From: a phage
Direction: 5' to 3' (one strand)
DNA: 64,000 bases
NCBI GenBank assembly: GCA_012690745.1
Contig: GCA_012690745.1_4086.2
The notes beneath the pieces were generated by a model, which saw only the letters and a program-made list of their open reading frames with translations, ran no database searches and was not told the DNA's origin. The position numbers and the translations under genes were made by a program. Of this stretch, positions 1-34,367 are shown one piece after another. Numbering within the stretch: position 1 is the stretch's first letter; every line of letters begins with the position of its first letter.

Positions 1-119
1 TACTAATACATATTTCGGCAGAGTATGCTACAATAATTGTATTCAAATGACTTTAAACGCAAATGAAGATGGTAACAGTACTAACCTGTACTCCGGCATC
101 ATAGGTATACTATTCCTGT

Positions 120-308
120 ATGAATAATTACAAAGACTTCTATTTGAATACACTACCTACTGTACTTTCTCTAAGTGCTCAATGTAAAATCCCGCTGGAT
201 AATGCTTACGCCAGATATAGCTATTCCATAACTGTTAATCGATGTATAGAGAATCATTGCAGTACTAACCAGTACTATAACATAATCCTACTTATATTCA
301 GGTACTAA
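120..308 (+). CDS. hypothetical small protein (tandem repeat unit 1)
   Basis: Track ORF; paralogous to 310..492 and 508..699; no clear RBS. Confidence 0.3.
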   Translation: MNNYKDFYLNTLPTVLSLSAQCKIPLDNAYARYSYSITVNRCIENHCSTNQYYNIILLIFRY

Positions 309-309
309 T

Positions 310-492
310 ATGAATAAAGAACATAAAGAATTCTATATACGAAAACTAACATTCGTCCCCGTAAGAATATATAAAGAATGCGACCCAAGATTATACCTAT
401 GGCACTTCAATGAGTGCATAAAAGATTCTATATACCCTAAGAACTATAAAGAACAATTGTGCTCAGTACTAACACTAGTACTATCATATTAA
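310..492 (+). CDS. hypothetical small protein (tandem repeat unit 2)
   Basis: Track ORF; paralog of neighbours. Confidence 0.3.
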   Translation: MNKEHKEFYIRKLTFVPVRIYKECDPRLYLWHFNECIKDSIYPKNYKEQLCSVLTLVLSY

Positions 493-507
493 TTAATAGA
501 GAATACT

Positions 508-699
508 ATGTATAAAAACTTCTATATAAGTAAACTAAAAGAAAATGAACAAGTATGGATTAGATCTATAATTCCACTGGCATTTAATAGATATGCATTT
601 AACAGATGTACCGAGATTGCTATAGACCCTTATAATATTAAAGAGAATGTACAGTATAATCAGTACTACTATATCTTAATGCTTATATATAGAAAGTAA
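508..699 (+). CDS. hypothetical small protein (tandem repeat unit 3)
   Basis: Track ORF; paralog of neighbours. Confidence 0.3.
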   Translation: MYKNFYISKLKENEQVWIRSIIPLAFNRYAFNRCTEIAIDPYNIKENVQYNQYYYILMLIYRK

Positions 700-1096
700 T
701 TAAACACAAGTAGACAGGGGAAGCTCCTAGTGAACAACCTTTATGTACAGGCGAATTGTTAAAATTCAGCCTGGACAAATGCGATCACTAGGATTCTCCC
801 CAGGCTAAACCTCGTAATCATAGGTAGTCATAAGTAATCATATATAAACATTTATATGAGCACCGTAGAATCACAGAATGATTATATATGATTCAGTACT
901 GATTAGTATAGACAAGATTGCTCAAGAATGCACGGAAATGTGTGTGAATGATTCAGTACTGATATGCCACTAAGTAGGCAGAGGAAGTCTGCCGTACTTT
1001 GTAGTTTCCAAGCTCCTTTTCCATTTTGCAAATTACATCAAATGTAATCAAAAGTAATCACGCAATGATTAGTACTGAATTATTACTTTCATCTTA

Positions 1097-1141
1097 ATTT
1101 CAATTACCCCTTTACCCTTCGGGGTAAAATTCAATTACCCC
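1097..1141. repeat. Direct repeat ttcaattacccct x2 flanking a small cccttcgggg hairpin
   Basis: Read directly from sequence. Confidence 0.5.
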
Positions 1142-1337
1142 TTGAGGCTCCAGCAAAAAGTTGGTTAGTACTCCATCCTAAATCTGGATCGTAAAAATTT
1201 TGGAGTACCTATGAAATAAAAGTTGGATCTTCGAAAGTTGAAATTTACGTTGGGACGTTTATGATTTGTGGGATATAATGATGATTGTAGTCGGGTAGTT
1301 CTCAAGAATATCAGTACTGAAAGATGAAAGAAAGTTA

Positions 1338-1365
1338 TTGACATTATGATTCAGTACTGTATAAT
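1338..1365 (+). promoter_or_regulatory. sigma70-like promoter
   Basis: -35 TTGACA 1338-1343, 16-nt spacer, -10 TATAAT 1360-1365; no ORF over 25 codons follows. Confidence 0.5.
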
Positions 1366-1548
1366 GTTCTACATAGAGAGATGAGTTGCTGCGAACAATT
1401 CATTTACTCTACCTCCTGTCGTGAGACAGTACAGAAAAGATAGTTCCTCCTGTGGTGGTACATCTTTTTGAACCTCATATGAAAATCGTAATAACAGTAC
1501 TGATATTAACAGAATGGTATTAGTACTGATTTTAATCTAAAGCATTAT

Positions 1549-1568
1549 GCCACCAGCACAAGCTGGTG
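1549..1568. repeat. Perfect 8-bp-stem hairpin ccaccagc-acaa-gctggtgg
   Basis: Perfect inverted repeat; same arms recur at 7908-7915 / 7970-7977. Confidence 0.6.
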
Positions 1569-1823
1569 GATTCCCTCTAACAGTATTCAGTACTACATGA
1601 TGGTCTTCATCCTCCTAGGGTAACATAGTGAGGGCTATGATGGCAGTACTGAATACTCCCTTTCAAAAGATAGATCTATGGTATAGTACTGACGGATTTT
1701 GGGTGTAGTTACCCTGGATGGATTTTGGGCGTAGATATGTCTAGCCCTCCAGAAGTCTGGAAGTAAAGATGGCTATCCATCTAGACGGCTAAACGGCTAG
1801 ATTTCTGGATGGCTAGACGTTTG

Positions 1824-1923
1824 GACGGCTAAACGGCTAGATGGTTACACGTCTGGAAGTATAGACGGCTAGACGGCTAAACGGCTAGATGGTTACACGT
1901 CTGGAAGTATAGACGGCTAAATC
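1824..1923. repeat. Tandem 40-bp direct repeats (two full copies 1824-1863 and 1872-1911 plus partial copies), ACGGCTA-rich
   Basis: gacggctaaacggctagatggttacacgtctggaagtata occurs twice identically; degenerate copies extend upstream to about 1777. Confidence 0.7.
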
Positions 1924-2540
1924 AAAATTTTATTTTGTTTTTTCCAATAGTTCCCCTACCGCGTCGGGGTAAATTCCCCAGCAGTATCGAACGTTAGATT
2001 TTTCTGAATCTGGAATCATTATCTTATAAACTGGGGGCAATGTCAACGGCCTGGACGGATATTTTTAAAATTTTTTTCAGTACTGAATTTTGGGCGTAAC
2101 TATGCACCCGGTGGGCTTGAGTCTTTCTCGACTTGATGGAACTATTATACAGTACTGAAAAAATAAAGCAATACCCTGGAAGCAAAAAAGTTTTAATTAA
2201 TTTGCTTGCTATCCTGGGCCGGACTATGGTACTATATTTCAGTACTGAGAAAGTGCGTTTACCTGCTAGGGTGCGGGAGTGTATCCTTTTTTTATATCTT
2301 GAATTTTGGGCGTAATTCCGCACCCTCTGGGGTTTCCGCTTTCTCACGTCTATGTAGTAATTATACGCTTTTTCAGGATCAAGTCAATACCTAAAAACAA
2401 AATAATTGAAAATAATTTAACGCGTTTAAACGGCCTGTAAAGCCCTGGAATGATTGGAATGGTGCAAATGTATAGCTTATGTGTATTAATGCGTTAGAAT
2501 GCGTCTGAGGCCGTTTTATGGGGTGTAGTAGTGATTTGGT

Positions 2541-2632
2541 TGATTCAGTACTGAATAATAGTACTCCTATATAGAAAGATAGTTCCCCTGGATTGATTCA
2601 GTACTGAATAATAGTACTCCTATATAGAAAGA
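2541..2632. repeat. 39-bp perfect direct repeat x2 (2541-2579, 2594-2632)
   Basis: tgattcagtactgaataatagtactcctatatagaaaga repeated; contains two AGTACT sites. Confidence 0.7.
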
Positions 2633-2663
2633 AAACTATTTTAAAAGTATTTGTAGAAAGTAC

Positions 2664-2691
2664 TTGCACCGTACTGATAAAAGCGTATAAT
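2664..2691 (+). promoter_or_regulatory. sigma70-like early promoter with downstream 5' hairpin (2705-2723)
   Basis: -35 TTGCAC 2664-2669, -10 TATAAT 2686-2691; hairpin agcgggaa-cac-ttcccgct. Confidence 0.7.
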
Positions 2692-2746
2692 GTTTTACAT
2701 CGAGAGCGGGAACACTTCCCGCTACACTTTAAGAGAGATTAATACG

Positions 2747-3109
2747 ATGGCAACTCAAATCACCAAAATTATTGCTAACCTGGTTAACTTCCGCGACGAG
2801 ATGAAAGATCTTCCGGCGGCGACGGTTAAAACTCACATTGACGCATACCGCGAACTGATTAAAATGCTGCCGCTTAAGCGTGAACAATACGCCGCTACCG
2901 TGATGCTTGATGCGATGATCCATAAGATGATCGCCAGTGATTTGACGATGGTTTATCAGTATATGGGCGAAAATTTCGCGGTGTGTAGTAAGCCAGTACC
3001 AGGGATGGCAACAACTGAGGAATTGCACGGCTTAAACTTAAAACAAGATGCATGGGATAATATGCCTCGTTTCCTGGTATGGGCTGACAGTGGCAAAATT
3101 TACAAATAA
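2747..3109 (+). CDS. hypothetical protein
   Basis: Track ORF 2690..3109 trimmed to ATG 2747 (track ATG lies in the -10 TATAATG); protein starts MATQITK. Confidence 0.6.
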   Translation: MATQITKIIANLVNFRDEMKDLPAATVKTHIDAYRELIKMLPLKREQYAATVMLDAMIHKMIASDLTMVYQYMGENFAVCSKPVPGMATTEELHGLNLKQDAWDNMPRFLVWADSGKIYK

Positions 3110-3123
3110 GTTTAATAAAGTAC

Positions 3124-3151
3124 TTGCAAACTATGTTTAATGGCGTATAAT
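3124..3151 (+). promoter_or_regulatory. sigma70-like early promoter with 5' hairpin (3163-3182)
   Basis: -35 TTGCAA 3124-3129, -10 TATAAT 3146-3151. Confidence 0.7.
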
Positions 3152-3204
3152 GTTTTACATCAGGTGGGGAATAGTTCCCCACTATATAAGAGGATTAAAA
3201 AAAA

Positions 3205-3444
3205 ATGGCTAAATCAAAAATGTTCTTAGGTCACAAAAACAAAACTCATTGGAATGTAAGCCTGTGGATTAATAACGATGAGGGATTGTATCGGTTGGCC
3301 CTGGACTTTATTGCCGCCAATACTAATCGCAATGATGCGGCCCGTCATATGATGTTATTTTTAGAACAGACTGGACAAGATAAAACACCGGACGGATTCA
3401 AATATAGCACTACTGCGATCCGTGCGGCGATGGTTGGAATGTAA
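3205..3444 (+). CDS. hypothetical protein
   Basis: Track ORF; RBS GAGGA upstream. Confidence 0.6.
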   Translation: MAKSKMFLGHKNKTHWNVSLWINNDEGLYRLALDFIAANTNRNDAARHMMLFLEQTGQDKTPDGFKYSTTAIRAAMVGM

Positions 3445-3464
3445 TAGAATTTATTTAAAGTACT

Positions 3465-3493
3465 ATCATTTTTTTGCGATAGTACTTTATAAT
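3465..3493 (+). promoter_or_regulatory. promoter-like element (good -10, poor -35)
   Basis: -10 TATAAT 3488-3493; flanks resemble the promoter at 15935. Confidence 0.3.
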
Positions 3494-3530
3494 AGTGTTT
3501 TATTCATACACCAACGATAAGGGCAACAGC

Positions 3531-3797
3531 ATGAATATTAAGTATTTTGCGACGCGTGAACAAGCTCGGATCGCCGCACGCCAGGACGGGGCAACGTTTA
3601 AAGATATGGGAGCGGGATCGGCAAGTGGTAAACGTTGGGCCATTGTAAAGCGTAGTACGGCCAGATCATTACAGTACTGGTTAGCGGCCTTAAAAAGTCC
3701 CGATAGTGTATCGCGTCGAGTGGTAGAAATAAAGCTCGACCGAAAGGGCAACCGCGTGACCGTGTACCGTACTAAAAAGATTGCAGTACTTGAATAA
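3531..3797 (+). CDS. hypothetical protein (paralog of 16012..16407)
   Basis: Trimmed from track 3495; shares FATREQARIAAR...TFKDMG...RW and DRKGNRVTVY with 16012..16407. Confidence 0.6.
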   Translation: MNIKYFATREQARIAARQDGATFKDMGAGSASGKRWAIVKRSTARSLQYWLAALKSPDSVSRRVVEIKLDRKGNRVTVYRTKKIAVLE

Positions 3798-3804
3798 AAA
3801 GTAC

Positions 3805-3832
3805 TTGCAAACTATGTTTAAAGGCGTATAAT
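3805..3832 (+). promoter_or_regulatory. sigma70-like early promoter with 5' hairpin
   Basis: -35 TTGCAA 3805-3810, -10 TATAAT 3827-3832; hairpin gagcgggaactcttcccgc follows. Confidence 0.7.
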
Positions 3833-3884
3833 GTTTTACATCGAGAGCGGGAACTCTTCCCGCCTATAACCTGGAGTAATAAAA

Positions 3885-4115
3885 ATGACTAATATGTATA
3901 TGACTGAAGTTAAAACCGTAAAAGATACTACCACGAATAAAACTACTTACTTACAGCGGATCTGTGGTGTATGGCAACGTATCAGCAAATCAAAGTACTT
4001 TAAATTAACATCATATGCAAACCGTTCTGATTCATTCAGTACTGAAATAAAAGGTAATAAAGTACACCAATACGGCACTTATTATTATTACAGCCTGGAC
4101 GCGATTGCAGTATAA
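3885..4115 (+). CDS. hypothetical protein
   Basis: Track ORF; RBS GGAG. Confidence 0.55.
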   Translation: MTNMYMTEVKTVKDTTTNKTTYLQRICGVWQRISKSKYFKLTSYANRSDSFSTEIKGNKVHQYGTYYYYSLDAIAV

Positions 4116-4145
4116 GCAGTTTACAAATCTTTACAATTGCCGGTA

Positions 4146-4174
4146 TTGACTTATTTTGTCAGTACTGGCATAAT
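4146..4174 (+). promoter_or_regulatory. promoter (TTGACT/CATAAT class) preceding inverted-repeat element pair
   Basis: -35 TTGACT 4146-4151, 17-nt spacer, -10 CATAAT 4169-4174. Confidence 0.55.
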
Positions 4175-4197
4175 GTATTCATTGGCAGATAAGCCGT

Positions 4198-4272
4198 AGC
4201 CCATAGGGTGCGGGAGTGTATCTATAGAAAAATTAGTTTAGTATAGTTACAATTGTGCACCCGGTGGGTTAG
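4198..4272. repeat. Inverted pair of the cccaYagggtgc element (A copy 4198-4227, inverted B copy 4241-4272)
   Basis: agcccatagggtgcgggagtgtatctatag and inverted gtgcacccggtgggttag; family also at 2104, 2265, 2328, 6333, 10644, 12327, 14679, 17987, 20241. Confidence 0.6.
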
Positions 4273-4364
4273 CTGTTGTCATGGGGTATATTATGCCAGT
4301 ACTTGATAATGCTGTCAATACTTTTTTTTACTATCCAGTACAGAAAACTATTTTTAAAAAGTAC

Positions 4365-4392
4365 TTGCAAACTATGTTTAAAGGCGTATAAT
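4365..4392 (+). promoter_or_regulatory. sigma70-like promoter driving a conserved ~80-nt leader / candidate small RNA (4395-4475)
   Basis: -35 TTGCAA 4365-4370, -10 TATAAT 4387-4392; leader near-identical to 14797-14875. Confidence 0.65.
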
Positions 4393-4394
4393 GT

Positions 4395-4475
4395 TTTACA
4401 TCAGGACGGGGAACGAAATAAGTAACTTCCCGTTAAGTAGCCCAGGAGTAAGGCACACGAAAAACTCCCCTGATA
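4395..4475 (+). ncRNA. candidate small RNA / structured leader (copy 1)
   Basis: Transcribed between two tandem promoters; near-identical copy at 14797-14875, divergent copy at 7262-7330; contains hairpin cgggaa-N13-ttcccg; no ORF. Confidence 0.35.
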
Positions 4476-4482
4476 AAATAGT

Positions 4483-4510
4483 TTGACAAATGTTTTTAAA
4501 AGCGTATAAT
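4483..4510 (+). promoter_or_regulatory. sigma70-like promoter
   Basis: -35 TTGACA 4483-4488, -10 TATAAT 4505-4510. Confidence 0.7.
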
Positions 4511-4542
4511 ACTTACATCAACTACTGAATGAGGGTTATAAA

Positions 4543-5154
4543 ATGAAAACTATCACTACTACTACTTTCGTTATGGATTTTTCTGAATTGAACGCAGAAC
4601 AACAAACGTCAGCTATCGAACTGGTTCGGGAACGTGAAAAAAACTCAAACGACAATTATTTTTCTGAAAGTGAAATTGAATACTATAAAGAAACAGTACT
4701 ACCGGAATATGGCATTAATGACGCTGAAATACAATTCAGTGGTTTTTGGTCCCAGGGTGACGGTGCATCAATCAGTACTGACCACGTTGACGCAGTGAAG
4801 TTTTTACGCAAGGTTAGAGCGTTAACTAAGTATCGCTCAATCCGTCACCTGCTGAATGAAGATGAATTATCTATGAGGGTACAGCGTTCTCAATCCCGCT
4901 ACTCACACGAAAACACTGTAAGCGGGTACATTGAATCGGGGTACACTGATTTAACAGCAAAACAGGAAGCGTTAGCCAATGAGCTTGAGGAATTGCTTAC
5001 TGTTACTATTCGTGAATTATCTCGCAAGTTGTACCGTGATTTAGAGAATGCATATGAGGATCAATTCACTACTGAGAACATCACGGCACTGATCGAGGGT
5101 AACGAGTATCAATTCAATGTTATTGATGGCGTAGTAGAATCAATCGCATATTAA
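4543..5154 (+). CDS. hypothetical protein (203 aa)
   Basis: Track ORF; RBS GAGGG; contains FSGFWSQGDGAS segment; family not identified. Confidence 0.7.
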   Translation: MKTITTTTFVMDFSELNAEQQTSAIELVREREKNSNDNYFSESEIEYYKETVLPEYGINDAEIQFSGFWSQGDGASISTDHVDAVKFLRKVRALTKYRSIRHLLNEDELSMRVQRSQSRYSHENTVSGYIESGYTDLTAKQEALANELEELLTVTIRELSRKLYRDLENAYEDQFTTENITALIEGNEYQFNVIDGVVESIAY

Positions 5155-5209
5155 TTTAGTACTGAGATAATGGCGGGGAATGGTTCCCGCCTTTACTGAG
5201 GAATATCTA

Positions 5210-5497
5210 ATGAGCAAAGTAATTAGCTATACAGTATTAAGCAAGTCATTATCTATTAGCCAGTGCACTGATGGTTATTGGCTTTATGATGAATCGCGTG
5301 GCATGAATTTAGCTATGCGTGCAAAAACTGCTGAGGCGGCGTATCTTGAGGCACTGGAATACTACCAGGAACGATTAAAGGAAGTAGAAAACGATTATAA
5401 TAACCTGAAAGCGAAAGTAGATCATTTCGTCGGGCAATTCGTTGACGATGACGAGGAAGACGGGCACTACTGCGACCGTTGCGGATCTTACAGTTAA
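5210..5497 (+). CDS. hypothetical protein
   Basis: Trimmed from track 5180 to ATG 5210 with RBS GAGGAA; track start lies in hairpin 5173-5192. Confidence 0.6.
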   Translation: MSKVISYTVLSKSLSISQCTDGYWLYDESRGMNLAMRAKTAEAAYLEALEYYQERLKEVENDYNNLKAKVDHFVGQFVDDDEEDGHYCDRCGSYS

Positions 5498-5514
5498 GTA
5501 CTAAGGATTATCTA

Positions 5515-5721
5515 ATGAGTGATTTAATTGAACGTATCAAAGAGCTTGAAGAAAAAGAATTACAGTTAATCGGATTGCGTAATAAAGTTTATTCAGAGCT
5601 TGGAGGCTTCATACAGGCTTGGGATAGTGGTGATCCTGATGCTTTACCTGCTAACCGCCAGGCGATGATCAATGATGTGAGAAGTGTCTTTGATTATGTT
5701 TTAAAAAGTACTGGACACTAA
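5515..5721 (+). CDS. hypothetical protein
   Basis: Trimmed from track 5479 to ATG 5515 (RBS AAGGA); starts just after upstream stop. Confidence 0.55.
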   Translation: MSDLIERIKELEEKELQLIGLRNKVYSELGGFIQAWDSGDPDALPANRQAMINDVRSVFDYVLKSTGH

Positions 5722-5739
5722 GCAATAAAGGCGTATAAT
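5712..5739 (+). promoter_or_regulatory. sigma70-like promoter with 5' hairpin (5751-5772)
   Basis: -35 TGGACA 5712-5717, -10 TATAAT 5734-5739. Confidence 0.6.
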
Positions 5740-5791
5740 ACTTTATATCGAGAGCGGGAATAGTTCCCGCTACTAATGAGGAATACTACAA

Positions 5792-5956
5792 ATGAATACT
5801 TTTACCTTCGCTCAATTGAACGCCCTGGATGTATTGTCTGATGCTTTGCGGGATGCAACTGAAAGCGGTTTATTTGACAATGTTGACATTCACCCTGATG
5901 TAATTAATAATTTTTGTGATGCTATCGCAGAAGTACTGGAAGATCTAAAAAAATAA
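5792..5956 (+). CDS. hypothetical small protein (54 aa; not in ORF track)
   Basis: ATG 5792 after RBS GAGGAA, downstream of promoter and hairpin; stop TAA 5954-5956. Confidence 0.45.
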   Translation: MNTFTFAQLNALDVLSDALRDATESGLFDNVDIHPDVINNFCDAIAEVLEDLKK

Positions 5957-5966
5957 TAGAAAGTAC

Positions 5967-5994
5967 TTGCAATTAGTTTTTAGTACTGTATAAT
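5967..5994 (+). promoter_or_regulatory. sigma70-like promoter with 5' hairpin (6007-6025)
   Basis: -35 TTGCAA 5967-5972, -10 TATAAT 5989-5994. Confidence 0.7.
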
Positions 5995-6044
5995 AGTTTA
6001 CATCAAGGGGAGAAATGGTTCTCCCTGGTAATGAGGAAAATAAA

Positions 6045-6266
6045 ATGGCTAATATCACTACTCTTTCCCAACTGGAAGCACTGGTTAAATCTATGCGGGA
6101 ACATGCCGACAATATCGGCGTAAAAGATCCAGCCGTTTGCTTCTGCGACGAAATGAATGATGATACACTGGTAATAGCAGAAGTACAAGATATTTCTAAC
6201 TATTCATCGCGTTACACTGGCGGCGTAGCAAATAAAGGTGACTTCTGTTTATACCTTACCAAATAA
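6045..6266 (+). CDS. hypothetical protein
   Basis: Trimmed from track 6015 to ATG 6045 with RBS GAGGAA. Confidence 0.6.
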   Translation: MANITTLSQLEALVKSMREHADNIGVKDPAVCFCDEMNDDTLVIAEVQDISNYSSRYTGGVANKGDFCLYLTK

Positions 6267-6271
6267 CAACG

Positions 6272-6301
6272 CGGGGAGATAATAACTCCCCGTTACTTTT
6301 T
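6272..6301 (+). terminator. rho-independent terminator
   Basis: Stem cggggag / ctccccg, loop ataataa, then T-rich ttacttttt. Confidence 0.6.
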
Positions 6302-6434
6302 CAGTACTGAATCATTTAATAGACGGATCTCGGCACCCTGTGGGTTAGTGACTGTATCGTCTTTATGTAGTAATTATGCCAGTACTGGATGCAGTTGTCA
6401 ACAATTATTTTTCAAATACTTTTTATTAAAATAC

Positions 6435-6462
6435 TTGCTATTAGTTTTTAAACGCGTATAAT
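6435..6462 (+). promoter_or_regulatory. sigma70-like promoter with 5' hairpin
   Basis: -35 TTGCTA 6435-6440, -10 TATAAT 6457-6462; hairpin ggggagcggttcccc. Confidence 0.65.
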
Positions 6463-6509
6463 GTTTTGCATAGGGGGAGCGGTTCCCCTGGTAACTAAGG
6501 AATAAGAAA

Positions 6510-6746
6510 ATGGTCGAACAAATCAAATCAACGTCTTCGAATGTAACGGGAACGGTAGCACACTTTACTAGTGATGAATCGCGGGGCGTTCCCTATTGTG
6601 CTGTACATGTAAACACTGAGGGTAACTACTGGTTTACGGTTTACGGATCATATTCATTTGGACGGCCAGGGCATCAAAAAATTCTGGATAAAGTACAACC
6701 AACGGGTAAAAATATCACTGCCGAAATGTTTTATAAAAAATCATAA
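6510..6746 (+). CDS. hypothetical protein
   Basis: Track ORF; RBS AAGGAA. Confidence 0.6.
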   Translation: MVEQIKSTSSNVTGTVAHFTSDESRGVPYCAVHVNTEGNYWFTVYGSYSFGRPGHQKILDKVQPTGKNITAEMFYKKS

Positions 6747-23011: not shown

Positions 23012-23316
23012 AACACTTAACTGATGATGAATTTGAAACTATAATTCGTAAACTAACCCCCATCACAAGGATAGTCTACGGTGACCCCAGCCTTACATGG
23101 AACCAAATGCGAGCTAAAGTTAATGAGCTATGGTTGCTGTACTTTATGGGGACTCAATATCAAGATAAGTTTTGCACAGAATATATCGAACAATTAACGA
23201 ATGTTATACAGGATAAACTAGATGATTATTTGCTCACAAAACATGAAGATTTTATCAGGAGTGGAGTATCAGACTGCCCTCTTCTCTCTTCTAAACACCC
23301 TCCGCACGAACAATAA
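23002..23316 (+). CDS. small paralog family member 7 (C-terminally extended)
   Basis: Motif FMGTQYQDKFC; the usual stop at the ctATGA junction is absent, so frame reads on ~30 codons over next gene. Confidence 0.5.
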   Translation: MQMKHLTDDEFETIIRKLTPITRIVYGDPSLTWNQMRAKVNELWLLYFMGTQYQDKFCTEYIEQLTNVIQDKLDDYLLTKHEDFIRSGVSDCPLLSSKHPPHEQ

Positions 23317-23494
23317 ACTTTATAATTCCCGTGAAGCTGATATCGTCAACGCTGATGTATATCTTAATAAATTCATAGGGACTAACTATCAAGAACTGTT
23401 CACTCTACGATATATCGCTGCATTGAGAAACGAAATATCAGATAAAACCCGTCAAGCCAGAAGAGAATGGAATAAACAATGCGACACAGACTAA
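23222..23494 (+). CDS. small paralog family member 8
   Basis: Starts MII like other members; motif FIGTNYQELFT. Confidence 0.55.
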   Translation: MIICSQNMKILSGVEYQTALFSLLNTLRTNNKLYNSREADIVNADVYLNKFIGTNYQELFTLRYIAALRNEISDKTRQARREWNKQCDTD

Positions 23495-23727
23495 ATCACA
23501 AAATGTATTGTAAACTATTACAGACACTGGCACAGAAACACTATGACACGGTATCTGGAATATTACCCTATGATATCATGCGTTTACTTCACTGTGAGGC
23601 CGAGATGCTTGTACTGATGACAGGCACTGATAAAACAGCAATCGCCAGATCGATAGAGCAATATATTGATGCACACTGCCAACACATGAGAACCGAAATC
23701 TGGAGGAAAGAGAATGATAATTCTTAA
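23479..23727 (+). CDS. small paralog family member 9 (divergent)
   Basis: N-terminus fits family; motif region divergent (MTGTDKTAIA). Confidence 0.5.
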   Translation: MRHRLNHKMYCKLLQTLAQKHYDTVSGILPYDIMRLLHCEAEMLVLMTGTDKTAIARSIEQYIDAHCQHMRTEIWRKENDNS

Positions 23728-23929
23728 TGAGTATCAGTATCATTGGAGGTTACAAACTATCAAATCAAAAGTGTATAGTATTGTGTTAAACAAATCTATT
23801 GCACAAGAGGACAAATGTGTTATAATAGCTGAAATGAAGTTGGGTGTATTCGTAGGGACAAACTATCAAAACATCTACACTGACGTATTATTAAGTTCCT
23901 TACGTAACAAGGTGGTATCCAAAATATGA
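23714..23929 (+). CDS. small paralog family member 10
   Basis: Motif FVGTNYQNIYT. Confidence 0.6.
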   Translation: MIILNEYQYHWRLQTIKSKVYSIVLNKSIAQEDKCVIIAEMKLGVFVGTNYQNIYTDVLLSSLRNKVVSKI

Positions 23930-24144
23930 GAAATTTACAAGGCTTTGAATACATCAGACTCCTGAAAACATGTGGAAGCAGAAGGAGAATGATATCAAGC
24001 GATAAGAGCATCCAAGCTAACCTTAAGCACGCACTAGTAACTGAACTTTATGTAGGTGCACTCTTAGGCACAAACTATCAACAAATGTATGTAGATCTAT
24101 GGATTGACGCTCTACAGAAAGAGGTTAAAAGTAAATGCAAATGA
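23926..24144 (+). CDS. small paralog family member 11
   Basis: ATGA overlap; motif LLGTNYQQMYV. Confidence 0.6.
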   Translation: MRNLQGFEYIRLLKTCGSRRRMISSDKSIQANLKHALVTELYVGALLGTNYQQMYVDLWIDALQKEVKSKCK

Positions 24145-24353
24145 TTAATTTAAGTAAAGACGAATTTTATGTTATACTGGCGAAAACTTATCCAGCACGT
24201 AAGGCCGTTTATGATAGTCACATTATTGAACCCTCAAAGAAGTTGATTTTAGTAAATGAGATAAAGATGCTTTCAGTCTTAGGAACAAACTATCAAGAGA
24301 ATGCTGTACTGATGTTAATTGATGCCCTCCAGCGAGAGGTTAAACGTAAATGA
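24135..24353 (+). CDS. small paralog family member 12
   Basis: Motif LGTNYQENAV. Confidence 0.6.
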   Translation: MQMINLSKDEFYVILAKTYPARKAVYDSHIIEPSKKLILVNEIKMLSVLGTNYQENAVLMLIDALQREVKRK

Positions 24354-24580
24354 AAATGATTCATTTAACTTACCATGAATATCAAAAACGTTTAAATGCA
24401 TCCAGAGATATAAGGATTCAAATATTCAATAACAAAAGATTGAAGCCTGATATCAGGAAAATCAAAATCATAGAAGCCGTGTTGTGCAACTTCCTAGGGA
24501 CTAACTATCAGGAAGGTAAGGTAGAAAACTATCTTATAGAACTCATGAATAGTATTGAAAATAAATGTAAGGGTAATTAA
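24350..24580 (+). CDS. small paralog family member 13
   Basis: ATGA overlap; motif FLGTNYQEGKV. Confidence 0.6.
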   Translation: MKMIHLTYHEYQKRLNASRDIRIQIFNNKRLKPDIRKIKIIEAVLCNFLGTNYQEGKVENYLIELMNSIENKCKGN

Positions 24581-24581
24581 C

Positions 24582-24821
24582 ATGAAAATGATTAAATTAT
24601 CTCAAGCAAAATATAAAGAACGCCTGGTAAAAATTGCACCTGGACTTAATGAAATCCATCACGGAGAAGTCATTAAACACGGAAATAAGATGATTATGAA
24701 ACTTGAGTTAAAGGTGGGTGCATTCATAGGAACAAACTATCAGGAGTATTATGTAGATGAATACATAATCGCACTTAAGAGATACATTGGAAGAAAACTA
24801 TATCTACAAACTAAAGAATAG
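24582..24821 (+). CDS. small paralog family member 14
   Basis: Trimmed from track 24555 (TTG) to ATG 24582; motif FIGTNYQEYYV. Confidence 0.55.
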   Translation: MKMIKLSQAKYKERLVKIAPGLNEIHHGEVIKHGNKMIMKLELKVGAFIGTNYQEYYVDEYIIALKRYIGRKLYLQTKE

Positions 24822-24850
24822 TATTGAAAATAAATGTGAGGTTGATGAAC

Positions 24851-25114
24851 ATGCAAATGATCAATTTAAGTAAAGATGAATATACCGAGCGTATGACAAA
24901 AATTACGCACAAACGTAATACAATCTATCACAACCCAGAAATTCAACACAGTAAGAAAATGATTATGATGCGTGAGTTAAAGATGGGTGTATTCTTAGGA
25001 ACAAACTATCAAGATACAGAAGTAAATCGCTTAATCGCGGAGTTACTACTGGAAATCAAAGGTAAGCTGTACTTTTATCAAATGACCCAACCACTAAGGT
25101 GTACTAAGAAATGA
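24851..25114 (+). CDS. small paralog family member 15
   Basis: Trimmed from track 24824 to ATG 24851; motif FLGTNYQDTEV; preceded by duplicated segment agtattgaaaataaatgt. Confidence 0.55.
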   Translation: MQMINLSKDEYTERMTKITHKRNTIYHNPEIQHSKKMIMMRELKMGVFLGTNYQDTEVNRLIAELLLEIKGKLYFYQMTQPLRCTKK

Positions 25115-25326
25115 TCAACATCACATTGCAAGAAAGATTCATCCGAATCAACTATGCAATTACCAAATTAGATGCTACTATAGGCAACCAAAGTTTACCG
25201 TTCAAAACAAGAATGATATTAGAGTGCGAAGCCAAGTTAGGTGTACTGTTAGGGACGCAACACCAACAACGATATGTGGAAATCTGGATTGATCTTTTAA
25301 CCCAAAATGCACATGAGAGAATGTAA
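25111..25326 (+). CDS. small paralog family member 16
   Basis: ATGA overlap; motif LLGTQHQQRYV. Confidence 0.55.
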   Translation: MINITLQERFIRINYAITKLDATIGNQSLPFKTRMILECEAKLGVLLGTQHQQRYVEIWIDLLTQNAHERM

Positions 25327-25557
25327 ATGCAAAAGGAAATGATATACTTAACACATGATGAATTTCAAGAGAAGATGTTAAAAGCCAATAACATTACTCT
25401 TAAGTTCGTTCCAAATCAATCAATATATGAAATGTCTGCGAATGTATTGTTTCAGAAGCTACCATACGTTCTTGGAACTGATAAACAAGAATTTATGGTT
25501 CAAAATATGATTGAGCATCTTGCAATGAGTATTATGGAAAAAGTAAATGCAAAATGA
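25327..25557 (+). CDS. small paralog family member 17
   Basis: Motif VLGTDKQEFMV. Confidence 0.55.
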   Translation: MQKEMIYLTHDEFQEKMLKANNITLKFVPNQSIYEMSANVLFQKLPYVLGTDKQEFMVQNMIEHLAMSIMEKVNAK

Positions 25558-25807
25558 AATGAAATACTTAACATATAATGAATACGTCGAGAGATTAGTT
25601 CGTGCCAAGAGATATACCAATAAACGTCCAATTGACCTAAACCAAACCCCAGCAGAAAGGAGTGCAGAAGTATTATTCCAATCACTACCATATCTTCTGG
25701 GAACTGATAGACAAGAGGAATATGTTGCACGTATGATTAGATATCTTAAAATCACTATTAAGGAAAAAGTAAATGCAAATGCAAATGAAATACTTAACAG
25801 ACGATGA
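25547..25807 (+). CDS. small paralog family member 18
   Basis: Motif LLGTDRQEEYV; reads through the usual junction stop. Confidence 0.55.
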   Translation: MQNEMKYLTYNEYVERLVRAKRYTNKRPIDLNQTPAERSAEVLFQSLPYLLGTDRQEEYVARMIRYLKITIKEKVNANANEILNRR

Positions 25808-26030
25808 GTTAAAAGAACGATTAATTAAATCCAGAAAACTTACAAATCAACTTCCAAACGACACAAACAAGTCACATGCCGAAAGGAGTGCAGAAGTTTT
25901 ATACATTCAACTCCTGTACTTTCTTGGAACTGACAGACAAGAGTATTACATTGAAAGTATGCTTCGATATCTTAAATTCTCTATAAAGGAAAAGGTACAT
26001 GCTCAAGAATTTAAAAATCCTAACAGTTAA
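25773..26030 (+). CDS. small paralog family member 19
   Basis: Motif FLGTDRQEYYI; start may be the 2nd or 3rd ATG of atgcaaatgcaaatg. Confidence 0.5.
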   Translation: MQMQMKYLTDDELKERLIKSRKLTNQLPNDTNKSHAERSAEVLYIQLLYFLGTDRQEYYIESMLRYLKFSIKEKVHAQEFKNPNS

Positions 26031-26241
26031 TGAATATCATAAGATTGTAATGAAGACTAATAGTGCTTACGCTAAAAAATCAAACCCAAAGTACATACTG
26101 GAACACACATTCGAAGAACGTCAATTAGCTCTAGTTGAAGCAAAACTTCTTGCACTCCTAGGAACAAACTATCAGGAAGAATACATCAGAAAACTAATAT
26201 ACCTTTTAACTAAACACATCAGGAAAAGAAAAAAAGCATGA
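25999..26241 (+). CDS. small paralog family member 20
   Basis: Motif LLGTNYQEEYI. Confidence 0.55.
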   Translation: MLKNLKILTVNEYHKIVMKTNSAYAKKSNPKYILEHTFEERQLALVEAKLLALLGTNYQEEYIRKLIYLLTKHIRKRKKA

Positions 26242-26468
26242 AACACTTGACAGATGATGAACATGGGCTTATAGTAATGGATGTAATCAACATCGAATAC
26301 AAAAAGTTGATACGCTATCGTTGTTATGAAGATAAGCAACTCGTTCTAGCAGAACAGAAGTTGTTTCGACTCTTAAACACAAACTACCAAGCACAATACG
26401 AAGAATCGTACATGTACCTTTTGGCGAGGAAAGCAAAAAGAGATTATGAAAATTTTAAGCAAAGGTGA
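26238..26468 (+). CDS. small paralog family member 21
   Basis: ATGA overlap; motif LLNTNYQAQYE. Confidence 0.55.
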   Translation: MKHLTDDEHGLIVMDVINIEYKKLIRYRCYEDKQLVLAEQKLFRLLNTNYQAQYEESYMYLLARKAKRDYENFKQR

Positions 26469-26667
26469 TTCAGTAATATTACTTATAGAGAGTTCAAGTA
26501 AATTCTTAAACATAACACTGTCTGATATAGATGAAGATGACAAAGAAGTACTGAGAGCAGATTTAAGAGTACTGTTACATCTCGGAACAAACCTACAAGA
26601 AGAATATGTAGAGTGCTACATCAATGAACTTAAAGAATCAGTACTGAGAAGATGCAAATGCGAATGA
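26446..26667 (+). CDS. small paralog family member 22
   Basis: Motif HLGTNLQEEYV. Confidence 0.55.
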   Translation: MKILSKGDSVILLIESSSKFLNITLSDIDEDDKEVLRADLRVLLHLGTNLQEEYVECYINELKESVLRRCKCE

Positions 26668-26879
26668 TTACCGACGAAGAATACCTAACAATTATAAATG
26701 GATTGTTTTTGAAGTTGTTTGTTATTAACACATCAGATATACCAGATATGGATAAAATTATTAAGAGAAATGAAATCTATGTTCAAGCTACACTAGGGAC
26801 TAACTATCAAGAATGCTATATTAATGATTATATTAATACACTTAAACGAGCGATTGAACTAAAATGCCAAAACCACTAG
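26652..26879 (+). CDS. small paralog family member 23
   Basis: Motif TLGTNYQECYI. Confidence 0.55.
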   Translation: MQMRMITDEEYLTIINGLFLKLFVINTSDIPDMDKIIKRNEIYVQATLGTNYQECYINDYINTLKRAIELKCQNH

Positions 26880-27079
26880 GAACAGCAGAATACATTGAAC
26901 TCATGGGATTACACTTCTCATCCTTTCAGAAACTTATGCGAGATTCAAAGAATGATTTAGAATATACCATCAGAAGTTCAGAATTAAGAATGCTTCTCAC
27001 CCTAGACACAGATTCCCAAGAGCGTTTTGTCAATGAGCACATTAGAGCACTTTTAATGGAAATTAAAAGTAAACTATGA
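26864..27079 (+). CDS. small paralog family member 24
   Basis: Motif TLDTDSQERFV. Confidence 0.55.
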   Translation: MPKPLGTAEYIELMGLHFSSFQKLMRDSKNDLEYTIRSSELRMLLTLDTDSQERFVNEHIRALLMEIKSKL

Positions 27080-27291
27080 AGATAATATCAAACCAAGAGT
27101 ACTTGGCACTATTCAGAAAGAATAATCACAAATTTATGGCACTTGATTCAAGAACTGATATAAGTGAACTTGAAAAAAATCTTTTGCGTTCAGATATGAT
27201 AGTACTGACACTCTTAGGAACACAGCATCAAGAGAGAACTGTTAATTCACACATAGGTATTCTTATACAGATTGTACAGGAAAAGATATGA
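27076..27291 (+). CDS. small paralog family member 25
   Basis: ATGA overlap; motif LLGTQHQERTV. Confidence 0.55.
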   Translation: MKIISNQEYLALFRKNNHKFMALDSRTDISELEKNLLRSDMIVLTLLGTQHQERTVNSHIGILIQIVQEKI

Positions 27292-27509
27292 GAATCATAT
27301 CACAACAAGATATTCTTAAGTTCACAAGGGTTCATGCATCTGAATTTGATGCTATATTATCAAAAAGTTACAATGACCCTTATACACAAGATGTACATTA
27401 CAGTGAATTATGGATGTATATACTTTTAGGTACAAATAAGCAAGAGCAAGCCGTACAGAAGTATTTGACAGCTTTACGTGATGCTACAGCTAATGGAGTA
27501 TGTGTTTAA
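27288..27509 (+). CDS. small paralog family member 26
   Basis: ATGA overlap; motif LLGTNKQEQAV. Confidence 0.55.
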   Translation: MRIISQQDILKFTRVHASEFDAILSKSYNDPYTQDVHYSELWMYILLGTNKQEQAVQKYLTALRDATANGVCV

Positions 27510-29079: not shown

Positions 29080-29272
29080 TCAAGAATGGAAGACCCAAAA
29101 GTACAGGGAATTCAGTACTAGTTTAACAAAAGATGCATTGAATTTAAAAAGAACAGAGTTTGATATGTTTATTTTTCTTGGAACACGTTCACAGGAACAA
29201 TACATTCATTATTATATAAGTTCATTGCGAACGGAGATCGTATGCAAAACACAGGGTATTATAAAAAAGTAA
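29057..29272 (+). CDS. small paralog family member interleaved in large array
   Basis: Motif FLGTRSQEQYI. Confidence 0.5.
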   Translation: MSMYKTINQEWKTQKYREFSTSLTKDALNLKRTEFDMFIFLGTRSQEQYIHYYISSLRTEIVCKTQGIIKK

Positions 29273-29508
29273 ACCAATATTTGTACGCATCGAAGTACAG
29301 GGATTTTTGTTTAAAGGGTGGTGATGAAGATTTTTCTTTGCGATTATCAGAATTTAATCTGTTATTTTATCTTGGTACAAAAGAACAAGAAGAAATGGCA
29401 CAGAAATTTATCAAGCACCTTTTACAAAAAATTAATATGCAAATTTTGATGCTTAAGTTACAGAATGAGATAAATGAATATGAATCCAGAAATAGTTCAG
29501 GATCTTAA
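29242..29508 (+). CDS. small paralog family member (divergent)
   Basis: Motif YLGTKEQEEMA. Confidence 0.5.
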   Translation: MQNTGYYKKVNQYLYASKYRDFCLKGGDEDFSLRLSEFNLLFYLGTKEQEEMAQKFIKHLLQKINMQILMLKLQNEINEYESRNSSGS

Positions 29509-29866
29509 AAAAGTAATATTTCTTTTGAATACCAGAAGTGAATTGTATACAGAGTTAAAAGAGATTAATGCATTTTATCAGAATTTTGTAATCCAAGAGA
29601 TCAGTGATTTAATTACAGATGCATTATTTGAATTATCGGAGAAATACAAAGGAACAGAGTTCAGTGTTAAGAATGTTATTCGTCCAATTACAAGGAAAAT
29701 TATATTATCACATTTTACATTTGACAATAAAGATTTATTCAGTCATAATCCAAGTACAGCTTTATATTTTATTCCTGATTCAGACAAAAATCATCCTATT
29801 CATTACGGATGGATTTTGTCGTACATAGTACAAGGAAAGGAGTATCCTATTAAATGGAACGATTAG
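29474..29866 (+). CDS. hypothetical protein
   Basis: Track ORF; no clear family motif. Confidence 0.45.
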   Translation: MNMNPEIVQDLKKVIFLLNTRSELYTELKEINAFYQNFVIQEISDLITDALFELSEKYKGTEFSVKNVIRPITRKIILSHFTFDNKDLFSHNPSTALYFIPDSDKNHPIHYGWILSYIVQGKEYPIKWND

Positions 29867-30015
29867 GGCGATTAGATTATTACACAATTAATACAAATTA
29901 TTTGTTGCGTAATATAAAATCCGATTACAAAATATGGATAAAGAACAGAGATAGTATGTGTTATGAATTTTATTTAGATTATGCCATCAAACGCTTTTTA
30001 AGAGAAGAACATTAA
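29854..30015 (+). CDS. hypothetical small protein (53 aa; not in ORF track)
   Basis: ORF filling the gap; stop overlaps next ATG. Confidence 0.3.
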   Translation: MERLGRLDYYTINTNYLLRNIKSDYKIWIKNRDSMCYEFYLDYAIKRFLREEH

Positions 30016-30206
30016 TGCACACACCGCACAAAGAGCACAAAAATACAAAAACGATAAATGTTTTAAATGATTCTTTATTGGTGAGTATAAATTTATATTA
30101 TAAAATTCATTTAAATGGTGGTATTGAAAATTTTAGTTATTATTTGAGTGCAATATCGCAAGAGCATTTAATATACCAAGATCATTTATTGCACCCGAAT
30201 CCATAA
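30015..30206 (+). CDS. hypothetical protein
   Basis: Track ORF. Confidence 0.4.
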   Translation: MHTPHKEHKNTKTINVLNDSLLVSINLYYKIHLNGGIENFSYYLSAISQEHLIYQDHLLHPNP

Positions 30207-30214
30207 GGCAAATT

Positions 30215-30760
30215 ATGAATGATATAGAATTATTAGCACACAAGATTAGTACAATAATGCTTATCCTCAATAACAACCATCCTATATCGCAGATAGATGG
30301 AATCCTGAGTCAGAGGACAGGTGGTAGTTTATATTTGACATTAACAGAGGTTATCGCAAGGAATTACATTGATATTGAAATCGAGAACAGTGATGCATCA
30401 GGAAAGGTTGATGTAGGTGCATTAATCAGTTCAAATCCAGTATCAGCATCACCATTGACAAGAAATGTAAGTACAGGATTCGAAGGGTATTTGTGGTACA
30501 ATACCAATGATGATTATTTTATATATCAGCATTCCAATACAAATTATGATGAAGACAAATTTCAGTTCATAGACCCTTATGATGAAGCTGAAGTATTTCA
30601 AAAATCATTAATCACAAAACCGCATGAGATGATGTATCTAATGTTATTCAGTACAATGCATTTGAATCCATTAATTAAAGGTTTAAAATTTTATATTCAA
30701 TTGAATTTAGTCCATGTAGTTTATGATTTATTAATGCAAGGATATAGTTATGAAGTATAA
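30215..30760 (+). CDS. EYFQ-motif paralog family member
   Basis: Motif DEAEVFQKSLI. Confidence 0.55.
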   Translation: MNDIELLAHKISTIMLILNNNHPISQIDGILSQRTGGSLYLTLTEVIARNYIDIEIENSDASGKVDVGALISSNPVSASPLTRNVSTGFEGYLWYNTNDDYFIYQHSNTNYDEDKFQFIDPYDEAEVFQKSLITKPHEMMYLMLFSTMHLNPLIKGLKFYIQLNLVHVVYDLLMQGYSYEV

Positions 30761-31067
30761 AATGCTTAATACAGCATCAGGGATATATGTAGAATTAGAA
30801 TCCGATTATTCAGATGGATGGAATTTTATTAAACGACACGATAGAAATACATGGTACATGGCACATTTGGATAATGACGTAATAATAGATAATTTTGTCG
30901 ATTTTAATACATTATCAGAAGAAGAATTTTTCCAAATGCAATTTGTGCTTGATACAAATGGATTTGATTTGCTATTATTAAGGAATATTCAGAAAGCGGT
31001 TAATGAATTCATAATCCAAAATAATTCAGGTAAAATGGGGATGTTCCATGATCTGGAAGTACAATGA
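30750..31067 (+). CDS. EYFQ-motif paralog family member
   Basis: Motif SEEEFFQMQFVLD. Confidence 0.55.
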   Translation: MKYKMLNTASGIYVELESDYSDGWNFIKRHDRNTWYMAHLDNDVIIDNFVDFNTLSEEEFFQMQFVLDTNGFDLLLLRNIQKAVNEFIIQNNSGKMGMFHDLEVQ

Positions 31068-31623
31068 AAGCAATGATTACAATGAAATTCAGTACACCTA
31101 CGCTAATGCAATCCTTATGGGACAAAAGTTAGCTTGTATTGTTGCAGCCTTATATAATGCCCAGAAATATCACAAGCGTCATTTCCACAAATGTATTGGT
31201 ATTATTCCATCGAAGTACAATACATATATTGCGTGCACGAGTCATTTTGATAAACGATTCAATACACCTGATACCCCAAATTCCTGTAGTGTTATTGGTC
31301 TTTTGGATTTCGCACCTGGTGCTGTTATTGGAAAGAATGATTTAGAGTACGCATGGTATAATAAAAATGCCCCGTTAGTAATGGTAAAATATGATACAGA
31401 AACGAATAAAACAATAGAGTACAATACATATAAATCAGAGGAAGAATTTTTCCAAGGTTCATTGCTTGTACCAGTGCGTTTGTTATTTTATAATGTCATA
31501 ATGAGTACAGTACACAATAGTCCATTACACAAGAATCACAAAATTAATTTCAATTTTTGTGCTTATGCGATTGATGGTGTGTATGAGTGTTTAATGGAGG
31601 TATTGAGTTATGAAGCTGAATAA
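31048..31623 (+). CDS. EYFQ-motif paralog family member
   Basis: Motif SEEEFFQGSLLV. Confidence 0.55.
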   Translation: MIWKYNESNDYNEIQYTYANAILMGQKLACIVAALYNAQKYHKRHFHKCIGIIPSKYNTYIACTSHFDKRFNTPDTPNSCSVIGLLDFAPGAVIGKNDLEYAWYNKNAPLVMVKYDTETNKTIEYNTYKSEEEFFQGSLLVPVRLLFYNVIMSTVHNSPLHKNHKINFNFCAYAIDGVYECLMEVLSYEAE

Positions 31624-31951
31624 TACATTTGATATTAATAAGTTAAGAGAATGGTTTTATAGTATTGAAATTGAAGCCATCCCGTATCATAGATATGAAC
31701 AATATAATTTAACCAGTATTGATATCAGTGAGTTGTACGCGTATTATCAAAGTGCATTAGAGATGCATAAGTTATTTTTGAGTACAGATTTTGTTCTAAA
31801 TTACAATTTTGAGGAATTTAAAAATTATAATTTAGTACAGAAATATGTAGTAGCAAAGTACATGTACCTTCAAGGAATTACAAGTAATTTGGAATTCAAT
31901 ACAGTCCTTGCTTTAGTTGAGGTAATTTTATGCAGTACATGTATGATTTAG
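31610..31951 (+). CDS. EYFQ-motif paralog family member (divergent)
   Basis: Variant motif SELYAYYQSALEM. Confidence 0.45.
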   Translation: MKLNNTFDINKLREWFYSIEIEAIPYHRYEQYNLTSIDISELYAYYQSALEMHKLFLSTDFVLNYNFEEFKNYNLVQKYVVAKYMYLQGITSNLEFNTVLALVEVILCSTCMI

Positions 31952-32436: not shown

Positions 32437-32461
32437 GATATGGGCTTTTTTCGTTTTGGTA

Positions 32462-32490
32462 TTGACAAAGAAGTGCAAAGCTGTTATCAT
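32462..32490 (+). promoter_or_regulatory. sigma70-like promoter inside the array
   Basis: -35 TTGACA 32462-32467, 17-nt spacer, -10 TATCAT 32485-32490. Confidence 0.5.
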
Positions 32491-32518
32491 GTGTAATCAT
32501 TTTAAAGGAGAACATATA

Positions 32519-34171: not shown

Positions 34172-34172
34172 T

Positions 34173-34367
34173 ATGCTTATAATTGATATTAAACAAAAAT
34201 ACCGTAAGTTTGATTGGTTCACCGATAGTTTCCAGCTTGAATTATTACATATGAATATCAGTGAAACATTATGTGCAGAAACACAAGATGAATTTGATGA
34301 TAGAGTGATGAACATAGTAATGCTTTCTTGCTTTAAACATTTTGGTTATTTTTTCGGACAGTATTGA
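34173..34367 (+). CDS. hypothetical small protein
   Basis: Track ORF; no family motif. Confidence 0.4.
   Translation: MLIIDIKQKYRKFDWFTDSFQLELLHMNISETLCAETQDEFDDRVMNIVMLSCFKHFGYFFGQY

Follow-up and report, generated by a model that had tools for sequence, protein, structure and literature searches.

Tandem array of genes for small, putatively early proteins at the genome terminus of Asteriusvirus jumbo coliphages

African swine fever virus (ASFV; multigene families MGF100, MGF110, MGF360 and MGF505) and poxviruses possess terminal gene families ('gene accordions'), for which a role in host range or immune evasion has been demonstrated. The terminal-redundancy module of SPO1, the early 'monkey-wrench' genes of T4 and the pre-early genes of T5 are modules of host take-over. 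Polyimmunity arrays (SUKH, Imm) of polymorphic toxin systems are thought to neutralise a spectrum of related effectors. Furthermore, the early region of CBB contains short ORFs behind RpoD-like promoters (PMC5259590). Here we compare with these systems a tandem array of small genes that lies next to the genome end of Asteriusvirus phages.

The DNA analysed (64,000 nucleotides, GenBank assembly GCA_012690745.1, contig GCA_012690745.1_4086.2; the whole stretch is referred to as the window) carries three small ORFs close to its start, which a preliminary description made from the letters alone had placed exactly where the ORF list has them. The first 3 kb of the window match ~40 genomes of jumbo coliphages and Salmonella phages of the PBECO4/121Q group (genus Asteriusvirus), the best match being E9.1 (97.7% identity); judging from this match, the window is DNA of an Asteriusvirus jumbo coliphage (PBECO4/121Q/G17/E9.1 group). 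The features at its start are as follows.

1 to 127, + strand: 3' end (41 codons and stop) of the preceding family member, ortholog of E9.1 CDS0657
120 to 308, + strand: unit 1 (W1), ATG ORF, 62 aa, match to phrog_11711 with E=2.5e-14; present in E9.1, PBECO4 and A4
300 to 302, + strand: weak Shine-Dalgarno core AGG of unit 2, the Arg codon of the unit 1 ending ...R-Y-stop (AGG TAC TAA t ATG)
310 to 492, + strand: unit 2 (W2), ATG ORF, 60 aa, match to phrog_11711 with E=1.6e-6
499 to 502, + strand: weak Shine-Dalgarno-like GAGA of unit 3, 5 nt before the ATG
508 to 699, + strand: unit 3 (W3), terminal unit of the array, ATG ORF, 63 aa, match to phrog_11711 with E=7.1e-24
973, unstranded: physical genome terminus, first base of the direct terminal repeat, from the E9.1, fEgEco12 and G17 alignments

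The partial gene at 1-127 overlaps unit 1 by 8 nt (ATGAATAA), and its frame-2 translation (TNTYFGRVCYNNCIQMTLNANEDGNSTNLYSGIIGILFLYE, followed by the stop) is identical to the C-terminus of E9.1 CDS0657. That the units encode related peptides was confirmed by their common match to the independent profile phrog_11711, and this kinship is apparent at the protein level: W1 and W3 are 34% identical (BLASTP E=2e-8) and W2 matches W3 with E=1e-3, the direct BLASTP match of W1 to W2 being not significant. Unit 2 is the most divergent of the three, its second helix being missing. The preliminary description had regarded the units as ~190-bp tandem repeats, which holds for a tandem gene duplication but not for the DNA itself, as Tandem Repeats Finder detected no repeat of ~190-bp period (the units are too diverged at the DNA level) and a repeat search revealed only short stretches of 13-27 nt common to them. 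Each of the two peptide motifs put forward is present in two of the three units, but not in the third: K-[DE]-F-Y (sequences KDFY, KEFY and KNFY) and NRC[IT]E (NRCIE, NECIK and NRCTE). No known RNA family was found at window positions 1-3200 (E<=1). When the other small-ORF runs of the window were searched with an HMM of the family, only the three units matched (next best E=0.056). One such run, ~25 back-to-back ORFs of ~70 aa with stop/start overlaps directly after the terminal repeat (21745-27500), is unrelated to the array family and presumably represents one of the other 'mini-gene families' of the preliminary description.

An extension upstream had been proposed as a check, and in every relative examined the array indeed continues, to ~4-5 kb and 16-22 copies. 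By comparison with these genomes, the three units are the last three genes of a 16-22-copy tandem family located just before the physical genome end, and the relatives carry 13-19 further copies upstream of the part that is present in the window. Copies were counted with an HMM built from the E9.1 paralogs and searched in the genomes of the relatives.

121Q: 16 copies
G17, PBECO4 and A4: 17 copies each
Metagenomic relative (L011): 18 copies
E9.1: 21 copies
BF17: 22 copies

In E9.1, the array comprises 21 small paralogs (59-75 aa) and one embedded unrelated ORF of 219 aa, in total 4.8 kb, and the three units of the window correspond to the last of these paralogs. The synteny is constant: a cluster of RCC1-like propeller genes on the opposite strand is followed by the array, ~2 kb of non-coding DNA and small early genes. 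At least six paralogous genes for RCC1-like/WD40_RLD beta-propeller proteins are located on the opposite strand directly upstream of the array (positions 1-6577 of the E9.1 locus L003; 1-6482 in L011). The embedded ORF (219-223 aa, phrog_29152; positions 8714-9373 of L003 in E9.1) lies mid-array in every genome and has no recognisable domain; it was rejected as a relative of the family (hhalign probability 0.3%).

Clustering at 62% identity resulted in 37 ortholog groups over 8 genomes, with indels, duplications and relocated units. Judged from this gene content, the array gains, loses, duplicates and reshuffles units among closely related phages. All genomes, including the most divergent one, retain the first (head) and the terminal unit of the array as well as several internal ones, and unit 3 in particular was found in all eight relatives examined. 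Unit 2 is absent from A4 and the metagenomic phage. Unit 1 is lacking in 121Q and G17 together with its upstream partner, which is why several BLAST matches begin at window position 304; it is also absent from BF17, ph0011 and the metagenomic phage, the partner being kept in BF17 and ph0011.

Three records of relatives begin or end at window position 973, to which base 1 of E9.1, base 1 of fEgEco12 and the last base of G17 are aligned. For fEgEco12, PhageTerm was used to determine the termini, which restriction digestion confirmed, and the direct terminal repeat has 20,993 bp (PMC13070987); the repeats of G17 (~20 kb, PMC6563267) and Sharanji (20,668 bp, PMC11895373) are of similar length. With the terminus at 973, the unique region thus has the array as its last coding element, and 273 bp separate the end of the array from the terminal repeat (~20.7-21 kb), which is full of early promoters. 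The idea that the units adjoin the control region was thus right in spirit, as they end 273 bp before the terminus and a promoter-rich repeat.

Within the repeat, 4 nt from its start, begins a hairpin (GGCAGAGGAAGTCTGCC; 977-993). Also just inside the repeat, at 1742-1930, there is a non-coding array of 8-bp period with ~23 units of TAGACGGC-like sequence and a 48-bp super-periodicity; GATTTTGGGCGTA occurs four times in its vicinity (1693, 1719, 2084 and 2300), and an exact direct repeat of 40 nt is located at 2540-2579 and 2593-2632. In the intergenic regions between 2700 and 14300, each early gene of the terminal repeat is preceded by a near-consensus sigma70 promoter of its own, which follows one of two designs, AGTACTTGCA-N16/17-TATAAT (motif fused to the -35 box) or TTGACA-N9-AGTACTG-TATAAT (motif abutting the -10 box), some promoters carrying both motifs 20 bp apart. 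Downstream of the promoters follow a conserved GTTTTACAT, a G/C-rich hairpin in the 5'-UTR (e.g., GGGGAGAAtagTTCTCCCC) and the RBS.

The preliminary description left two alternatives for the units, a family of mini-genes or protein-binding repeat DNA, and proposed to examine whether conservation follows codon positions. When all paralog pairs of E9.1 are compared, the identity of the first, second and third codon positions is 0.465, 0.541 and 0.379, compared to 0.28, 0.31 and 0.275 expected by chance; conservation is thus strongest at position 2, weakest at position 3 and not uniform. Furthermore, orthologs (E9.1 versus six other genomes) show a dN/dS of 0.28-0.53 when read in the annotated frame, compared to 0.83-1.35 when the frame is shifted either way (six genome pairs), unit 1 and its ortholog in A4, for example, differing with pS=0.46 and pN=0.09. 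Intact ORFs are maintained in all copies in all genomes. The codon-position conservation and the frame-specific dN/dS therefore argue for genes rather than for protein-binding repeat DNA, for which no ~190-bp repeat was found either. By these tests, the units are protein-coding and under purifying selection, though a selection 2-3 times weaker than that on the neighbouring early genes (dN/dS 0.15-0.17 for 11 adjacent genes versus the same genomes). A dN/dS of 0.3-0.5 is compatible with relaxed constraint as well as with diversifying selection.

Metagenomic orthologs of units 2 and 3 (P0018, P0002, P0023 and P0025) carry small in-frame C-terminal duplications at the AGTACT-bearing stretch (reading LVLSLVLSY and QYNQYNQYYY), and one frameshifted tail variant is present in Salmonella phage SD-1_S14. 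These variants suggest slippage at short repeats.

The proteins of the family are ~60 aa long, Tyr-rich and predicted to be all-helical, forming a domain of 3-4 helices. The AlphaFold2 models are confident: that of W3, made with the family alignment, has four helices (residues 3-7, 12-21, 28-39 and 52-61; pLDDT 85.8, pTM 0.69), and that of W2, obtained in the same way, has three (pLDDT 79.6). Conservation is seen at hydrophobic or aromatic residues, namely F/Y-Y close to the N-terminus, a Leu, a Cys in the centre and Y..VL.LI at the C-terminus. The sequence elsewhere and the net charge vary widely (pI 4.7-9.6), which is in keeping with variable surfaces on a conserved scaffold. Foldseek searches with the W2 and W3 models retrieved no match in the PDB at E<=0.001 (E>2.8), nor did W3 match any BFVD entry at this threshold; a single BFVD hit, A0A411BGI5 (68 aa, 30% identity, E=0.046), apparently belongs to the family. 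The best hit of a profile search against PDB sequences had E=2.6. No match above cut-off was found in Pfam and NCBIfam and none with PADLOC, the sub-threshold Pfam hit ADAMTS_CR_2 (E=0.059) being dismissed. Neither sequence nor fold likeness to characterised host-take-over, immunity, defence or anti-defence proteins was detected (PADLOC, Pfam, NCBIfam, PDB sequences, Foldseek against PDB).

When 1.84 billion representative proteins were searched exhaustively with the family HMM, 17 hits were obtained. Sixteen are proteins of 44-75 aa, and those of their contigs that were examined are either ~350-kb phage contigs or short contigs with the same array; the remaining one, P0075, is a repeat protein of 680 aa whose match is spurious and due to low complexity. 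As far as this search reaches, the family is confined to Asteriusvirus-type jumbo coliphages. The orthologs in public records (PBECO4, 121Q, G17, phAPEC6, E9.1) are annotated as hypothetical proteins, and PHROG 11711, whose function is given as unknown, covers the array in part, the 'YTYREVLKLISI' subfamily and the 75-aa head unit not matching it. No paper describing the array was found in the literature.

As the window does not include the head of the array, its promoter, RBS and operon structure were deduced from the relatives. There, a predicted promoter, the consensus match TTGACA-N17-TACTAT with a CAGTACTG box in the spacer, is located ~26 bp before the first unit and is followed by a strong AAGGAG RBS at the first cistron. 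This 60-bp stretch of putative promoter and AAGGAG is invariant in 6 genomes, including a divergent metagenomic one with a different first gene, and is built like the early promoters found in the terminal repeat. The gene junctions in the array range from -8 to +15 nt with one exception (E9.1 coordinates), and no terminator-like site was found on the + strand inside the array. The sequence features of an early operon, i.e. a conserved sigma70-type promoter and RBS, close-packed cistrons and the absence of internal terminators, are thus present, and we infer that the array is transcribed early as one polycistronic mRNA whose cistrons are translationally coupled.

The lack of clear RBSs in front of the three units, which had been pointed out before, was confirmed, their Shine-Dalgarno sequences being weak or absent. 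Unit 1 has none, and its start lies within the 8-nt overlap with the preceding gene. The junction of units 1 and 2 (300-312) reads AGGTACTAATATG, a string that is found at 6 of the 21 E9.1 junctions, where the Arg codon of the conserved ...R-Y-stop provides AGG seven nt before the next ATG. No promoter-like site was found on the + strand at window positions 1-700. The AGTACT-bearing tails were considered as promoters of the next unit and rejected, the spacing to -10-like sequences matching neither promoter design of the terminal repeat.

Taken together, the early-type promoter, the location next to the terminal repeat, the turnover in copy number and the elevated dN/dS point to host-directed early proteins, and the units probably represent such proteins amplified into a multigene family. 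On balance, we therefore favour, with modest confidence, the reading of the array as a polycistronic set of 16-22 paralogous, fast-evolving, host-directed early proteins of ~60 aa with a helical structure. According to this proposal, host sigma70 RNA polymerase would start at the promoter before the first unit, and the first cistron would be translated from the strong AAGGAG RBS. The downstream cistrons may be reached by coupling or re-initiation across the -8 to +15 nt junctions, aided by the weak AGG/GAG cores. The products could then serve as a battery of small binding proteins against host targets in host take-over or counter-defence, which is speculative, and the paralogs would diversify through tandem duplication and divergence, in the manner of the terminal multigene families of large eukaryotic DNA viruses.

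In a more specific version, which we regard as tentative and rather doubtful, each helical unit would be a miniature inhibitor that neutralises a different variant of a host factor (e.g., abortive-infection toxins or other defence effectors), and the array would be kept beside the genome terminus because unequal recombination between the units could there enlarge, reduce and reshuffle the repertoire. If true, the array would be the phage counterpart of the asfarvirus/poxvirus terminal multigene families, built on a fold without known relative.

Alternatively, the array may be a largely dispensable by-product of unequal recombination, whose redundant copies are expressed and drift without any paralog-specific target. 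The dN/dS above that of the neighbours would be expected in this case, as would the free loss and gain of units between near-identical phages (e.g., the pair of unit 1 and its partner absent from 121Q and G17) and the occasional frameshifted or slippage variants of the tails (P0018, P0025, P0002). However, the in-frame dN/dS is still clearly below 1 and all copies have intact ORFs; besides, the head, the terminal and several internal units are conserved even in the most divergent genome, and the fold-determining residues are kept across very old duplicates with ~20% identity. We thus consider this explanation unlikely.

An improbable, though not absurd, possibility is that the small proteins assist the RCC1-like proteins encoded next to them, as accessory factors or partners, and serve to assemble the virion or condense the DNA instead of acting on the host. 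Both paralog expansions are always adjacent and divergent, with a common intergenic region of ~100 bp, and phAPEC6 has eleven RCC1-like genes, the products of two of which, gp549 and gp551, are virion-associated (PMC7247149). However, the 62 virion proteins found in phAPEC6 (PMC7247149) include no small protein of the array, a result that is uninformative for non-structural proteins. Furthermore, the array promoter is an early-type sigma70 promoter with the CAGTACTG box of the terminal-repeat early promoters.

The similar AGTACT-containing tails ascribed to the units do exist, as sites are present in the tail of each unit, but they are not unit-specific, being instances of a genome-wide motif. 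In the units, the sites are distributed as follows.

261 to 276, unstranded: two AGTACT sites (261 and 271) in the unit 1 tail, read S-T (frame 0) and Q-Y-Y (frame 1)
465 to 482, unstranded: two AGTACT sites (465 and 477) in the unit 2 tail, both read V-L (frame 2), on codons non-homologous to those of units 1 and 3
662 to 667, unstranded: AGTACT site in the unit 3 tail, read Q-Y-Y (frame 1)

Since the codons that carry AGTACT in one unit are not homologous to those in another, each tail represents a local and independent occurrence of the motif, which was not inherited with the unit. In the window, AGTACT occurs 255 times compared to about 16.6-22 expected (~15-fold over-representation) and GTAC 581 times compared to 203 (zero-order expectation, per strand); the longer CAGTACTG and TCAGTACTGA are present 56 and 17 times, with about 0.65-0.7 and 0.05 expected per strand, respectively. 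The enrichment around the GTAC core has the form of nested palindromes (e.g., 894-901, 1352-1359 and 2546-2553). One third of the AGTACT sites is intergenic, and those in coding regions are spread over the three frames (61/41/58), synonymous codon choice being biased 4-5 fold towards AGTACT in each frame; in motif-rich segments, 60 of 95 Ser-Thr dipeptides are encoded by AGT-ACT. By its sequence properties, the GTAC-core signal resembles a modification target or a site bound by a dimeric protein.

The AGTACT-dense stretch from 973 to ~21600 coincides with the terminal repeat, as calculated from the repeat length. AGTACT is absent from two blocks of the window, 21600-26500 and 29150-36650. The latter contains 38 AGTACA and no complementary TGTACT (with a tandem CAGTACAGTACAGTACA at 32814), the former nine TGTACT and one AGTACA; the orientation of the half-site thus flips between the blocks, the genes being on the + strand in both. 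A sequencing artefact was dismissed, since the independent genome 121Q (L015) has the same pattern. No mention of AGTACT in jumbo phages was found in the literature. The tails belong to a much larger signal that extends over the genome and is undescribed, and it may be a more interesting lead than the array itself.

A strongly selected palindromic motif needs a reader, and the family itself could consist of small sequence-specific DNA-binding proteins that recognise the GTAC core (AGTACT and its variants AGTACA/TGTACT). The circumstantial evidence for it includes the basic character of many members (pI 8.5-9.6) and the coexistence of many paralogs with more than one motif variant. However, 8 of the 21 E9.1 members have a pI below 7, down to 4.7, and no helix-turn-helix or other DNA-binding fold was matched by either AlphaFold model, nor any DNA-binding domain in Pfam, which makes this explanation very improbable. 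Finally, that the ORFs are incidental and the array is repeat DNA acting at the nucleotide level (sites for terminase, a replication protein or a regulator near the genome end) is hardly credible and already largely refuted by the codon-position and dN/dS tests, even though the array ends so close to the terminus, has AGTACT in every unit (7.1 per kb in the E9.1 array versus 4.0 per kb in the window) and contains, in the coding sequence of one E9.1 unit, an early-promoter-like TTGACA-N10-AGTACTG-TATCAT, as the units are too diverged at the DNA level, are constrained in their annotated frame only, keep this frame open in all copies and carry AGTACT on non-homologous codons, the motif being equally enriched throughout the genome.

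Taken alone, the family is one of the lineage-specific families of hypothetical proteins that are abundant in jumbo phages. What sets the array apart is its position directly against the genome terminus, its turnover between near-identical coliphages that are candidates for therapy, the fold without relatives and a degree of amplification that is unusually high among phages (16-22 copies in tandem, corresponding to ~1.3% of a genome of 350 kb). If the proteins are indeed host-directed, the array would amount to a compact, naturally occurring collection of small proteins that bind E. coli targets, and it may be a marker of host-range differences among Asteriusvirus isolates.

In comparison with the known systems, the three proteins of the window match the profile of PHROG 11711 from Asteriusvirus phages end to end (positions 1-62, 2-61 and 1-62 of 62 for units 1, 2 and 3). 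By its sequence features, the array is a tandem multigene family, specific to one lineage, of small early phage proteins; as a kind it is ordinary, its details being uncharacterised. Polyimmunity arrays also consist of diverged small paralogs in head-to-tail orientation; in contrast to them, the Asteriusvirus array has no associated toxin gene and no Imm/SUKH homology in Pfam, its neighbours being RCC1-like propeller genes and the domain-less 219-aa ORF, and an assignment to this class was rejected. Judged by architecture, its closest analogues are the terminal families of asfarviruses and poxviruses and the take-over modules of SPO1, T4 and T5. With the modules of SPO1, T4, T5 and CBB it has in common small, mostly genus-specific proteins, strong sigma70-type promoters and a location at or near the terminal repeat. 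However, those modules consist of unrelated genes, each usually with its own promoter, whereas here a single family is repeated 16-22 times in one tight operon just outside the repeat. With the ASFV and poxvirus families the array shares, by analogy, diverged tandem paralogs beside the terminal repeats of a large linear dsDNA virus, a copy number that varies between isolates and an evolution faster than that of core genes; it differs from them in that there is no kinship of sequence or fold, the virus is a phage, the proteins have only ~60 aa, and the host role, demonstrated for the eukaryotic viruses, is conjectured.
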